DNA of 55,410 bases from a virus (Duplodnaviria; Caudoviricetes), in the IMG/VR virus record IMGVR_UViG_3300031578_000045, positions 1 through 55,410 of that record; one strand, written 5' to 3'. Of this stretch, positions 35,261 through 38,531 are shown one piece after another (position 1 is the stretch's first letter; each line of letters opens with the position of its first letter). The notes under the pieces were generated by a model. It made no database searches. It was not told where the DNA came from and saw only the letters and a program-made list of their open reading frames with translations. The translations under genes and the position numbers were made by a program.

Positions 35261-35488
35261 ATGATAAGAAACATGAAGAATTTTAATAAAAGGCTTGTAT
35301 GTATGTTTAGTTTGCTAGACATATTATTATGCGTTGTTTGTCTAATTTCGGTGATATTTAATGTATATGTTGCTGTTTGGTTTTGCGAGTATGATGATTG
35401 GCTTTACACAACATTAAAATACTGGTCCGCTGTCGAGGTGTGTATATTTATTTGGATATGCTGGAAATGCAATAGGAATAGTGCATAA
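35261..35488 (+). CDS. cassette membrane protein
   Basis: 2 TM segments; degenerate ATT/AAT ends at 35326/35489. Confidence 0.6.
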   Translation: MIRNMKNFNKRLVCMFSLLDILLCVVCLISVIFNVYVAVWFCEYDDWLYTTLKYWSAVEVCIFIWICWKCNRNSA

Positions 35489-35553
35489 TGGTACCCAGTT
35501 AAAAACATAAACAATGAATAAGATAATTAGAATTAATAACCTTAAAATAATGT

Positions 35554-35922
35554 GTGATGGAAAGTAATATGGATATAAAAGACAGATACGAAAAAGAAAC
35601 TGGAAATAATTACTACTGTAATAATTCACAAGAAGATTATGGTATTCATACAGATGAATATGTTGAGTGGGTAGAAAATAAGTTAAAAGCGTGTGAAGGC
35701 AACCCCTCTGATTTGAAAAACGCCAACTGTGCTATTGTTATGCTTACAGAATCAAATACATTTACATTTACAACAACGGATAATTGCTTGCACGAGAACT
35801 ACACTTTCAGAAATGTAACAGTTAATTTTTATTTATTTGAATTGACAATGCTTTTCAAAGTGTGCCATAACTGCCACAAATTAATTAAAGACCATAAGAA
35901 ATGGAAAATAAAAATTAATTAA
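35554..35922 (+). CDS. cassette ORF
   Basis: GTTATGCTTA / TAAGCATAAC. Confidence 0.7.
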   Translation: MMESNMDIKDRYEKETGNNYYCNNSQEDYGIHTDEYVEWVENKLKACEGNPSDLKNANCAIVMLTESNTFTFTTTDNCLHENYTFRNVTVNFYLFELTMLFKVCHNCHKLIKDHKKWKIKIN

Positions 35923-35965
35923 GCATAACGTAGGTAATATAACTAATTTAAAACATAATACGATT

Positions 35966-36142
35966 ATGAAAAACTTTTTTGTTAAGAAAAAAGCTTTCAC
36001 CGAAGTTTACTTAAAAAATCGCGGATGGAGAAAGCTAAATTCTCAAGGTGAATACGGAACGCATGAAGGATTATACGGTATTTATTACTTAGTTGAAGGT
36101 TTTGCCCATGTGCACGAAAAGTACTGTAGGCATTTTCGCTAA
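35966..36142 (+). CDS. 58-aa cassette ORF (not in ORF track)
   Basis: MKNFFVKKKAFTEV..; stops in TAAC. Confidence 0.6.
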   Translation: MKNFFVKKKAFTEVYLKNRGWRKLNSQGEYGTHEGLYGIYYLVEGFAHVHEKYCRHFR

Positions 36143-36219
36143 CGGTTTGTATAAGATTAGTTGCGATGGAAGATTGGATGCAGAAAAGTTGAATTGAAAC
36201 ACAAATAAAATTTAAAATT

Positions 36220-36438
36220 ATGGCAAAGATTTATGGAACTATTGAAATTGACTTTGATACTGATAAACCTATAACACAGGAGCAGTATGATAAGTTTGAA
36301 CGTAGGTTAAACAAAATGGTTGAAGATTGGGAGATGATGGTTTATGATGCTGCAAATGATGCAGGGTTTGAAGCCGATAGCATACATCCCATTTTGTTAG
36401 ATAACTTAGATTGTGAATTTGACGAGGAAGACGAATAA
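36220..36438 (+). CDS. acidic protein wholly inside a hairpin loop
   Basis: D/E-rich, 72 aa. Confidence 0.7.
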   Translation: MAKIYGTIEIDFDTDKPITQEQYDKFERRLNKMVEDWEMMVYDAANDAGFEADSIHPILLDNLDCEFDEEDE

Positions 36439-36518
36439 TTTTATTGCTTGTTGTGCTTAACGAAGTGGCGTTTTAATGAAGCACAACTACTATATATAAA
36501 AACAATTACTTAAATACA

Positions 36519-36764
36519 ATGGATAAAGAAGTGCAAATAAAAAGAATAATAAGGGCCTTTGTAATTAACAACCACTATAAAGGAGTTGATTTACAAGAGG
36601 ACTGGATTAATGACGCAGCAGAAGAAATAGTAAAAATATTTGCTATACCTGTTGTTATGCAACGAAGTGAACTGTTGCTTTTTGCTGACTATTCAGAAAG
36701 CGATAAAACCTCACAAACAACTGATGAATGTGTAGATAACTACCTTGCTCAAAAAAAGCAATAG
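36519..36764 (+). CDS. cassette ORF
   Basis: KIFAIPVVMQRS is the translated right arm. Confidence 0.7.
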   Translation: MDKEVQIKRIIRAFVINNHYKGVDLQEDWINDAAEEIVKIFAIPVVMQRSELLLFADYSESDKTSQTTDECVDNYLAQKKQ

Positions 36765-36876
36765 TGCATAACGGTTAATTATATGGGTAGTGCAACCCCC
36801 CAAACTGCACGAAAGTTGATTAAATGTATAACCGCTCCCGTTTTATTTTTGAGCGTGGGCATAAAACTAAATAGAT

Positions 36877-37098
36877 ATGTTACAATTAGTATTAAACACA
36901 CCGAAAGCCAGTAGAGATGGCAGCGCAGAATTGTTTATTGATTACCAAAGCGAATCAGTTGGATTTACTGTGGTAACAAAAGATGGCTTGCAATATGATT
37001 TTAGTTGTGAGGTTGAAGAATGGCAACAGTTAAAATCGTTTATTGAACAAGCTATTTCGCGCGATGGCAAAAATAAAACTCGCACAAACGTTGATTAA
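36877..37098 (+). CDS. ORF wholly inside a hairpin loop
   Basis: Lies between arms 36778-36796 and 37105-37123. Confidence 0.7.
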   Translation: MLQLVLNTPKASRDGSAELFIDYQSESVGFTVVTKDGLQYDFSCEVEEWQQLKSFIEQAISRDGKNKTRTNVD

Positions 37099-37206
37099 AT
37101 GCACGTTGCATTACCTATATAATGTGTTGTGTTGTCGTTTTAATGCAATACAACGTTGGTATAAGAAGCGTTGCGATTAAATAGTAAAAACTTAAAATAT
37201 ACACGA

Positions 37207-37569
37207 ATGAAAAATAAAGAGATTAAACAACCGCAAACCACCGAGGCAAGCAATGATTTTTATACGTTGTTATGCCCCGTTGATTTATTCCGTTTTTTCC
37301 TACGCAAAAACTACGAAGGGATAGAGATTAATAACGAGGAGTGCGATGGGCTTGGAGAAGAATTTTATAAATACCTACGAGCTTTAAACTTGACTAATGA
37401 GCAAAGAAAAAACATATTACCTAAGAATACATTTGATGTAATATTGAACGCAGACCACCCATTGAGAACAAATGGATTCCCAGCCGCTTATGTTTTGCAC
37501 TTTACACAATTTGTAGAACAGCAAAAAGAAAAAGCGTTGGCTGATGGTTACGAGCCTAATGGGGCATAA
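37207..37569 (+). CDS. cassette ORF (likely start MKNKE)
   Basis: Reads through the right arm (SNDFYTLLCPV); stops in TAAC. Confidence 0.7.
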   Translation: MKNKEIKQPQTTEASNDFYTLLCPVDLFRFFLRKNYEGIEINNEECDGLGEEFYKYLRALNLTNEQRKNILPKNTFDVILNADHPLRTNGFPAAYVLHFTQFVEQQKEKALADGYEPNGA

Positions 37570-37627
37570 CGTACAAGGCTATGCGTAGTGCCTTCTTAAA
37601 ATTACGCACAAACTTAAATTAAAAGAC

Positions 37628-37858
37628 ATGAGCAAGAAATACGAACAAACATCAGCAGAAGTGGATAAGGCATTACGTATAGGTAGTGTTAGCACCCGTT
37701 TATTAACTCGAATTGCAACAGACCTTGAAAAAGAAATGAAGCGTTCGGATAATGATATGGTAATAGCAGACCTTGAAATGCAGATTGATGGATTAAAAAC
37801 ACTTAAAAAAGAACTTGACGACTTTAGAACGATAAAGACTATTCTAAATGGGTGCTAA
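37628..37858 (+). CDS. cassette ORF, coiled coil
   Basis: KALRIGSVSTR is the right arm; stops in TAAC. Confidence 0.7.
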   Translation: MSKKYEQTSAEVDKALRIGSVSTRLLTRIATDLEKEMKRSDNDMVIADLEMQIDGLKTLKKELDDFRTIKTILNGC

Positions 37859-37989
37859 CGGTCTGCAATATGAAACGGCTAAAACTACACCCCGAAAATG
37901 AAAAGATATAACAATTAAATACAAATATTAATTAGATGCACGACAAGCTGTTTTATATTGTTTGTTAGGCATCTGTAAAAATTACGGAC

Positions 37990-38163
37990 ATGAACACAAT
38001 AGAAAAAATTGAAAACGGACACTTTAATTTCAGCGAATTTAATGAAGGACAAATAAACTTCATCAAAGGACTTGTAAAATTCGCATACAACGATGGTTAT
38101 GAAGATGGTAAAGCTGAAATTAAAGATAAGATATGGAACGCAATAGAAATAGAAACCGAGTAA
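37990..38163 (+). CDS. 57-aa cassette ORF (not in ORF track)
   Basis: MNTIEKIENGHFNF.. Confidence 0.65.
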   Translation: MNTIEKIENGHFNFSEFNEGQINFIKGLVKFAYNDGYEDGKAEIKDKIWNAIEIETE

Positions 38164-38310
38164 TTTTTATTGTGCCTAACGGTCGGCAATATGAAACGGC
38201 TAAACGGAACTTTGAAAAATGAGATACAGTAACAAATAAATACAAATATTAATTAGATGCAGGACAAGCTGTTTTATATTGCTTGTTAGGCATCTGTAAA
38301 AATTACGGAT

Positions 38311-38478
38311 ATGAGATACATACTTTTTGGAATAGGCTTATTAACATGGATTGCATTTGCATACGACATTGAAAATGATAGAGACTTTATGACTTGGATA
38401 TGGTTATTAACAAGTCTATTCTTTTTCGTAAATTCTTATGTGAGATATAAACACGATATGAAACAGAAAGGCAAGTAA
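38311..38478 (+). CDS. 55-aa 2-TM cassette ORF (not in ORF track)
   Basis: MRYILFGIGLLTWIAFAY.. Confidence 0.65.
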   Translation: MRYILFGIGLLTWIAFAYDIENDRDFMTWIWLLTSLFFFVNSYVRYKHDMKQKGK

Positions 38479-38531
38479 TTTTTATTGTGCCTAACTACTA
38501 TATATAAAAACAACCACTTAAATAACTGATT

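Follow-up and report, generated by a model that had tools for sequence, protein, structure and literature searches.

A family of attC-like sites delimits single-gene cassettes in phage genomes and points to integron-like exchange on the coding strand

The 55,410-bp stretch of DNA analysed here (the window) is one linear IMG/VR virus record of a tailed phage (IMGVR_UViG_3300031578_000045), with a CheckV completeness estimate of 59%. An original prediction had described its segment 35300–38524 as an array of integron-like cassettes, in which small genes are separated by AAC-hairpin-GTT sites resembling the attC sites of integrons. We conclude, with a probability of roughly 0.72, that this region is part of four single-gene cassette arrays exchanged by integron-like site-specific recombination on the folded coding strand. 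The observations behind this reading are the structure of the sites, covariation within their arms, their strand bias, a cassette-specific pairing rule, gene-content junctions that fall exactly on TAAC in related isolates, and the linkage of a tyrosine recombinase gene to such arrays.

The sites in the window were detected with a covariance model, R1, which was trained on 48 sites of other viral contigs and on no window sequence, and thus serves as an independent test. R1 matched the window seven times with E-values from 4.8e-12 to 9.3e-6, always on the + strand (S1, S2 and S4 to S8 in Table 1). Two + strand matches were weaker (32755–32864 and the left part of S3), and the only minus-strand match had an E-value of 0.78. 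The recurring sites of the original prediction were thereby borne out, as was their clustering at four loci, near 1.2, 32.5, 36.8–38.3 and 43.9 kb. Its figure of about 20 cassettes was too high for intact sites, of which we count 7–9, plus roughly 6 decayed TAAC↓G marks (the arrow denotes the junction discussed below). The four strong consecutive sites at 37141–38300, together with the weaker, interrupted one at 36759, correspond in structure to a cluster of attC sites lacking integron-integrase (CALIN), that is, at least two attC-like sites without a nearby integrase.

The six sequence pairs quoted in the prediction were all recovered by a repeat search at the places given for them. The inverted-repeat arms of the window include 36778/37105 (19 nt, 89% identity), 38186/38267 (16 nt, 88%), 37688/37845 (15 nt, 93%), 37269/37558 (13 nt, 92%), 37579/37667 (16 nt) and 35737/35929 (10 nt). 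Inverted repeats of at least 13 nt, with wobble allowed, numbered 48 in the window compared with 23–39 in 10 shuffles, and GTT...AAC repeats of at least 10 nt numbered 21 compared with a mean of 15.8 (maximum 23) in 30 shuffles. Because the latter are at shuffle level, the 10-nt pair 35737/35929 taken alone is a chance-level match. Inverted repeats as such are weak evidence; what exceeds chance by far is the composite structure. A pattern scan of IMG/VR returned at least 118 stretches, and among the matches in the first 78 loci 54 of 86 had an arm score of at least 12, while shuffled interiors reached at most 10. Of 23 copies of the motif GC(N)TAAC in the window, 14 lie between 31.4 and 39.4 kb, mostly directly after stop codons and followed by G.

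Across viral sequences, 235 oriented sites were collected from 124 sequences. Their consensus reads ATT-N5-TAAC↓G(G/T)TT, left arm, loop, right arm, T, GTTA-N6-GT. The hairpin is imperfect, with 16–20 bp, and is set off by a spacer of 3–5 nt after the G and one of 1–3 nt before GTTA. In many sites the left arm contains TAT(G/A) and the right arm TATA, at fixed spacing, 8 nt past TAACG and 6 nt ahead of GTTA, and the loops fall into classes of about 10, 35, 70 and 150 nt. TAACG and GTTA did not vary among the 48 aligned sites of other contigs, and 17 of 19 predicted arm pairs showed compensatory changes, a count that leans towards structure, as do the other pair counts, since sites and alignment were picked by our own structure-based scan. 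Wobble was frequent at particular arm pairs, one being G.U in 46 of the 48 sites and a second G.U in 23 and A.U in 22.

A second kind of pairing joins each site to the end of its own cassette. In 169 of 235 sites, the 18 nt from GTT had a partner, at a score of at least 10, in a stretch that ends in AAC and lies 109 to about 800 nt downstream; the corresponding counts were 16 of 235 when the search was run upstream and 13 of 235 for the site's own upstream stretch. Pairing beyond GTTA between the stretch after the hairpin (R') and the stretch before the next AAC (R'') covered 13–15 nt, and a G came right after the partner AAC in 132 of the 169 pairs. As the original prediction had stated, the sequence after GTT thus complements the next AAC rather than the preceding one; the window itself holds six clear cases (the cassettes after S1, S2, S4, S5 and S8 and the hairpin-less junction) and two weaker ones of 8–9 bp after S6 and S7 (Table 1). 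At position 11, a G in R' stands opposite a T in R'' in 152 of 169 pairs. This mismatch amounts to a wobble when the coding strand folds and to an A.C clash when the other strand does, which indicates that the folded strand is the coding strand. The longest open reading frame (ORF) lay on the site strand in 166 of 169 units (median 83 aa). In 75 of these 166 units it started ahead of GTT, inside the hairpin loop; in 48 of 166 its stop codon was the TAA of TAAC, and most other stops lay 11–14 nt upstream. Among 774 ORFs from 67 site-bearing sequences, the commonest cluster was an N6/N4 methyltransferase, found in 15 sequences.

The places where exchange occurs were mapped in cultured Flavobacterium (Muminvirus) and Polaribacter (Incheonvirus) phages that carry the same site family. 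Of 15 in-array gene-content junctions, 14 fell on the (T)AAC(G) core. The Polaribacter phages P12002L, whose sites lie on its early-gene strand, and P12002S are 99% identical over their shared parts; six of their seven in-array junctions lay within (T)AAC(G)(T), and the seventh was displaced by 7–11 nt into the left arm. At one TAAC, P12002S holds three complete units that P12002L lacks there, and a methyltransferase unit occupies different array positions in the two phages. Five Muminvirus isolates, 99.5–100% identical elsewhere, had all eight of their in-array junctions at TAAC. There, a 506-nt unit is present or absent between two TAACGTT, and another TAACGTT precedes three different units in three isolates. 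Junctions outside the arrays were at TAAC in 0 of 2 Muminvirus and 0 of 3 Incheonvirus cases, and one further P12002L/S indel had a shared 14-nt AAC-containing leader and no hairpin. Identity at the junctions was limited to 4–7 bases (TAAC, TAACG or TAACGTT).

These junctions define the unit of exchange as the stretch from the base after TAAC through the next TAAC. The prediction that breakpoints in relatives would map to the AAC/GTT cores thus held for AAC, in other phages of the site family, and not for GTT. Because the crossover is at AAC, the hairpin travels with the downstream gene, and this explains why so many cassette ORFs start in a hairpin loop. Each unit contains both arms of its hairpin as well as its R' and R''. 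There is evidence from the window itself as well. The window cassette at 31858–32289, the 5' hairpin of which is truncated, is 93% identical at the nucleotide level to a cassette of an unrelated viral contig (L145), and identity stops exactly after the TAA of the terminal TAAC. The roughly 130-nt hairpin module at 37856–37988 and 38177–38309 is 83–95% identical in two contigs, G001 and G002, which otherwise gave two weak protein matches to the window (methylase and helicase) and have no cassette or structural protein in common with it.

Clustering of ORFs brought out a tyrosine recombinase in 6 of the 67 site-bearing sequences. In five of the six, the gene, encoding 266–271 aa, starts 45–90 nt past the array's last TAAC on the same strand, and behind this last TAAC a T and a TA-rich motif take the place of G and hairpin. 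The cassette ORFs are read towards the recombinase gene. TA-rich end motifs of the same kind close the window arrays at 36480 and 38495. We found 96 viral relatives of the recombinase and kept 80, at loci that were not de-replicated. Among those at least 47% identical, 64 of 74 had at least one site, and up to 12, within 6 kb upstream on the same strand, and 5 of the 10 loci without an upstream site have less than 200 nt of upstream sequence. Of the 80 loci, none carried a site downstream of the recombinase and one carried a site on the opposite strand upstream of it; the more distant recombinase loci had sites in 0 of 6. The viral-contig relatives are 47–100% identical, and jumbo phages are among the carriers, whose contigs include ones of 108, 123 and 246 kb. 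The last of these (G004, the contig behind locus L115) is 92% complete, encodes a terminase, and has two recombinase copies, at 77.6 kb and 233.7 kb.

A scan of one prokaryote genome for each of 185,579 species, which finds close relatives only, gave best recombinase matches of 45–48% identity, mostly in metagenome bins of Bacteroidota and other phyla; in Flavobacterium genomes it returned only generic recombinases, 27–30% identical. A protein database held 5,212 proteins at E ≤ 1e-20, the best 120 of which were 76–93% identical and 262–288 aa long. The nearest solved structures were archaeal XerA (4a8e, 133 bits) and then IntI4 (2a3v, 95 bits, over the N-terminal 160 residues). From these comparisons, the best candidate for the acting enzyme is a phage-borne recombinase rather than a host-borne one. 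The prediction of cassettes shuffled in trans by a host recombinase would therefore stand as to mobility, by the junctions at the core in related phages, and probably not as to the source of the enzyme.

Taken together, we envisage a cassette that, on the coding strand, would consist of G and a spacer, an imperfect hairpin whose loop often contains the start codon, a second spacer, GTTA with about 11 specific bases (R'), the ORF, and about 11 complementary bases ending in TAAC (R''). A tyrosine recombinase of the Xer/IntI type would act on the folded coding strand, cutting at the hairpin's 5' foot, within TAA↓C↓G. From between a pair of adjacent sites, the cassette would come free as a single-stranded circle, in which alone the full 13–15 bp pairing of R'' and R' would form beside the hairpin, and the circle could re-enter at another TAAC. 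The identity of the enzyme, the single-stranded DNA substrate and the circle are what we infer from site and junction patterns. With distinctly less assurance we lean towards a wider picture. A phage-specific integron-like lineage would have its short Xer-like integrase at the downstream array end in jumbo phages, where it would act on the folded coding strand at TAA↓C. It would feed a shared pool of single-gene cassettes (including DNA methyltransferases and many uncharacterised small genes), on which smaller, integrase-less phages of Flavobacteriia (the window phage, Muminvirus and Incheonvirus) would draw in trans.

Several observations weigh against recombination by such an enzyme, or against a single crossover point. 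No close relative of the window phage was found, so the junctions were mapped in other phages. No PF00589 match was found in five complete array-bearing phage genomes, yet these phages show cassette turnover. The linked recombinase missed every curated model it was compared with, scoring 184–197 bits against a cut-off of 220 for its best family, XerA/integron-integrase (archaeal XerA), 145–171 bits, in two stretches, against 265 for the integron integrase TIGR02249, and 92–109 bits against 435 for NF011946. An N6/N4 methyltransferase ORF is 87–90% identical in nucleotides in four phage lineages (L073, which is P12002L, and L074–L076; phages of Polaribacter, Cellulophaga and Flavobacterium) and sits in each within a cassette with differing R'/R'' and hairpin, while the two adjacent window cassettes behind S6 and S7 have leaders and trailers in common and unrelated ORFs. 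These two cases indicate some exchange at ORF borders, beyond what one crossover at TAAC can account for. Finally, the G.T pairs on the coding strand and the start codons in the loops equally fit a role of the stems in RNA.

The last point underlies the main rival explanation, in which the hairpin and the long-range R'/R'' stem fold in a polycistronic mRNA and control its processing, stability or translation. The shuffling would then arise as a side effect when these conserved regulatory blocks recombine with each other, a course suggested for the promoter/stem-loop blocks (PeSLs) of T4-type phages. All sites are on the coding strand, leaders and trailers can be identical around unrelated ORFs, and the RecT and PD-(D/E)XK exonuclease pair of the window could drive annealing-type recombination. 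We nevertheless consider this account unlikely, since junctions with 4–7 identical bases strike the same core in nearly all in-array cases, a tyrosine recombinase family is linked to the arrays in fixed position and orientation, and full R'/R'' pairing beside the hairpin exists only after circularisation. A role of the same stems in RNA may also coexist with DNA recombination.

It is less probable still that the sites are real single-strand recombination sites served by another enzyme, either a host Xer pair that works on folded DNA in the manner of CTX-type phage integration, or an unrecognised phage nuclease or HUH enzyme. The complete genomes with active-looking arrays and no PF00589 match would fit such an enzyme, as would the closer structural likeness of the linked recombinase to archaeal XerA than to an integron integrase; the conserved 11-nt R'' arm ending in TAA presumably recalls an Xer binding arm. 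Against this stand the recombinase–array linkage, the generic recombinases that the scan for close relatives gave in Flavobacterium genomes, and the search for a Y1 (HUH) transposase, whose model PF01797 reached its cut-off in 0 of 5 records, the window included (one 13-bit match had an internal stop). The explanation that inverted repeats built up by chance in AT-rich intergenic DNA draws on the mild enrichment of generic repeats and the shuffle-level count of short GTT...AAC repeats; it is already refuted by the strand-specific R1 matches, the covariation in the arms, the excess of downstream over upstream pairing, and the arm scores that shuffled interiors never reached. A shufflon or invertible segment was dropped because the minus strand of the units has no ORFs, and a diversity-generating retroelement or retron because the repeats are inverted rather than direct and no reverse transcriptase was noticed. 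CRISPR-like arrays were considered and dropped.

All features of the window arrays are collected in Table 1. The sizeable ORFs of the window are all on the + strand and include genes for terminase, portal, capsid, M15 peptidase, PD-(D/E)XK exonuclease, RecT, helicase, DNA methylase and DnaB; the capsid is 30% identical to Flavobacterium siphophage capsids. No Phage_integrase domain (PF00589) was matched in the window, and hence no tyrosine recombinase was found there. At 59% completeness, the predicted absence of an integrase holds for the window and not for the whole phage, and a recombinase could still sit in the missing 41%. The window arrays look like an integrase-less, partly decaying cluster; any service they receive would come in trans or from that part of the genome. 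DUF7448 (112 bits, ORF 31874–32272) is the sole Pfam family among the window cassette genes; PHROGs gave no usable annotation for 10 cassette ORFs of the window, and Rfam, which has no attC family, gave 0 matches. Queries of 15 kb and 3.8 kb from the window had no nucleotide match in a phage collection, and the 603-aa protein at 28026 used as a query gave no relative.

Table 1. Sites, cassettes and decayed marks in the window. R1, covariance model score.
Feature	Position	Strand	Details
Site S1	1194–1339	+	AAC 1205–1207; left arm 1214–1231; right arm 1303–1319; GTT 1324; R1 75.9 bits, E 4.8e-12
Cassette body	1324–1607	+	ORF 1345–1596; bounding 13–16 nt inverted repeat, GTT start, AAC end
Decayed mark	31842		TAAC↓G with or without left arm
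Decayed cassette	31858–32290	+	ORF 31874–32272 (DUF7448); hairpin reduced to left arm
Hairpin-less junction and cassette	32285–32471	+	TAAC, 3 nt, GTTA; ORF 32315–32455; R' 32294 pairs with R'' ending 32471
Site S2	32458–32600	+	R' 32585 pairs with R'' ending 32768; ORF 32534–32755; R1 42.1 bits, E 9.3e-6
Weak or decayed site	32755–32864	+	After TAAC↓G; R1 19.5 bits, E 0.15
TAAC↓G leader	After stop codon at 33636	+	Resembles leader of 32755 site
Two decayed TAAC↓G marks	35923–35930 and 36138–36165	+	Each directly after a stop codon; second retains left arm only
Short hairpin with TAAC↓G	36440–36500	+	Then AAC and TA-rich array-end motif; 48-nt match to L094, 94% identity
Site S3	36759–37140	+	Arms 36778–36796 and 37105–37123; loop interrupted by ORF 36877–37098; R1 24.4 bits, E 0.018, left part (36759–36894)
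Site S4	37141–37284	+	Loop holds start of ORF 37207–37569; R' 37269 pairs with R'' ending 37570; R1 60.4 bits, E 3.6e-9
Site S5	37557–37703	+	Loop holds start of ORF 37628–37858; R' 37688 and R'' ending 37859, 15 bp, one G.T; R1 70 bits, E 6e-11
Site S6	37846–37979	+	Roughly 130-nt module, 85–88% identical to two otherwise unrelated viral contigs; R1 57.6 bits
Cassette after S6	37964–38180	+	ORF 37990–38163
Site S7	38167–38300	+	Second copy of S6 module, 95% identical to L069; R1 66.5 bits
Cassette after S7	38285–38495	+	ORF 38311–38478
Array end	38489–38515	+	Last TAAC, then T and TA-rich motif, no G or hairpin
Site S8	43878–44024	+	Loop holds start of ORF 43965–44228; R' 44009 and R'' ending 44229, 14 bp, one G.T; R1 61.9 bits, E 1.9e-9

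Within the loop of S3, 20-nt direct repeats (36807–36826 and 37082–37101, 90% identical) flank the 73-aa ORF, and the arrangement looks like an insertion with target duplication, or else a duplication of the 3' part of the loop. In contig G001 (loci L070–L072), the roughly 130-nt site occurs at about 3307–3440 and again at 13911–14029, 10.5 kb apart, with identical R' and in inverted orientation. The G001 arrays on the two strands face each other, so that inversion between the sites is conceivable. Just downstream of the main window array lies a RecET-type annealing recombination module (41607–43318) in which the PD-(D/E)XK exonuclease (DUF3799) stands beside RecT. A 237-aa ORF at 40140–40853 contains about 14 tandem repeats of 24 nt (8 residues), with matches in many unrelated viral contigs; 65 loci retrieved with this protein aligned through these internal repeats only and were rejected as relatives.

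Read runs X1–X3 contain the window and may be where it came from, and X4–X6 contain 7–11% of its words. The four read runs compared with the window consist of short assembled contigs, in which joints were called with sides of 20–48 nt at 85% likeness. One joint skips or replaces 36211–36438, which covers ORF 36220–36438, and another links 36165 to 37249; no circle junction appeared among these contigs, and we take the joints neither for nor against circles or deletions. In the probable source run, summed contig depth rose from about 20 to 36–61 over the twin cassettes (37405–38925), and long contigs broke at 36477 and 38833, as expected from repeats or coexisting variants. The GCT-rich low-complexity stretch at 41190–41240 had a contig depth above 1,000-fold in all four runs.

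The turnover of the many small early and anti-defence genes of phages, an open question, is usually attributed to homologous or illegitimate recombination. Our findings point to a site-specific cassette system inside phage genomes, and, if the wider picture above is true, phage accessory gene content would be assembled by site-specific cassette exchange as well. Sequence and structure make the site searchable, there is a candidate enzyme, and natural isolate pairs differ by whole cassettes and have cultured hosts (Flavobacterium sp. LMO6/LMO9 and Polaribacter), so the idea is directly testable at the bench. Cassettes of the Muminvirus and P12002L/S isolates include DNA methyltransferases, and the accessible text of the Muminvirus paper links methyltransferase content to plating efficiency on different hosts; the words hairpin, cassette and indel are absent from that text (PMC7077304). 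Cassette exchange of this kind would provide a rule by which accessory genes could be delimited in metagenomic phage contigs. With it, integron-type biology would reach viruses and a phylum in which classical integrons are reported to be very rare, the available part of the IntegronFinder 2.0 report giving a single complete integron in Bacteroidetes proper (PMC9024848).

Integrase-less arrays in phages, whose earlier description the original prediction had left open, are in part already known. The portions of Qi et al. 2023 available to us report 17 attC clusters without integrase in phages, HattCI/Infernal matches in P12002L, and recombination by IntI1 at 5 of 6 tested sites from three virulent phages, including 1 of 2 from P12002L (PMC9892861). 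Their clusters resemble the present arrays in being attC-like, integrase-less, located in virulent phages and furnished with DNA methyltransferase cassettes, and P12002L, one of their three tested phages, carries the present site family (PMC9892861). The two P12002L sites are described there as having 'divergent directions'; those portions describe no dedicated recombinase, isolate junction mapping or cassette-specific pairing rule (PMC9892861). A full-text literature search, in which the site sequences of Qi et al. were not compared, found no account of the array-linked recombinase, the polarity, the site family or the junction rule; attC clusters in virulent phages are thus known, and the recombinase, the polarity and the site family were found in no paper.

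The PeSLs of T4-type phages are, in the accessible text of the papers on them, promoter-plus-terminator blocks thought to recombine by homology (PMC2839356, PMC4122927). Like the present sites, they are repeated structured intergenic blocks that, in variable regions, flank small accessory genes and mark points of insertion, deletion and replacement between close phages (PMC2839356, PMC4122927). Here, in contrast, junction identity is 4–7 nt, every cassette brings complementary ends of its own and the arrays have a linked tyrosine recombinase, so that exchange does not run through homology of the blocks. In CTX-type elements, the host XerC/D act at dif-like sites on folded single-stranded phage DNA, and plasmid modules can be bounded by Xer sites. 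The likeness to the present arrays lies in a simple Xer-family tyrosine recombinase, a site formed by folding one DNA strand, and modules bounded by recombinase sites; those systems differ in that they are not known to build arrays of single-gene cassettes with cassette-specific ends. IS200/IS605-type elements differ by their Y1 (HUH) transposase, of which the five records examined gave no match at the PF01797 cut-off.

Read on the recombined bottom strand, integrons run AAC-hairpin-GTT, cassette, attI, intI, and cleavage at the 5' foot falls in AA↓C. The phage arrays on the coding strand read TAAC↓G-hairpin-GTTA, gene, repeated, then the TAAC end site and the recombinase, so that the order of array, end site and recombinase gene is alike when each is read on the recombined strand. 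The two also have in common imperfect hairpin sites with conserved outer AAC and GTT and asymmetric unpaired spacers, a site length of about 80–125 nt, single-gene cassettes, one favoured strand, junctions at the AAC core, and an outer complementarity, specific to each cassette, that becomes complete in the excised circle alone. The attC signature named in the original prediction thus stands for site anatomy and complementarity, and departs from integrons in that the hairpin leads the downstream ORF, often containing its start codon, and that cassette genes lie on the folded strand. Further differences are the phage recombinase, which fails the curated integron-integrase models and by them is not IntI, the outer pairing of 13–15 bp with its fixed G.T at position 11, and the location of these arrays in virulent and jumbo phage genomes. 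Two features of integron membership, an integrase of the IntI clade and an ORF upstream of its attC, read away from attI/intI, are therefore lacking, and in its geometry the system works like an integron.

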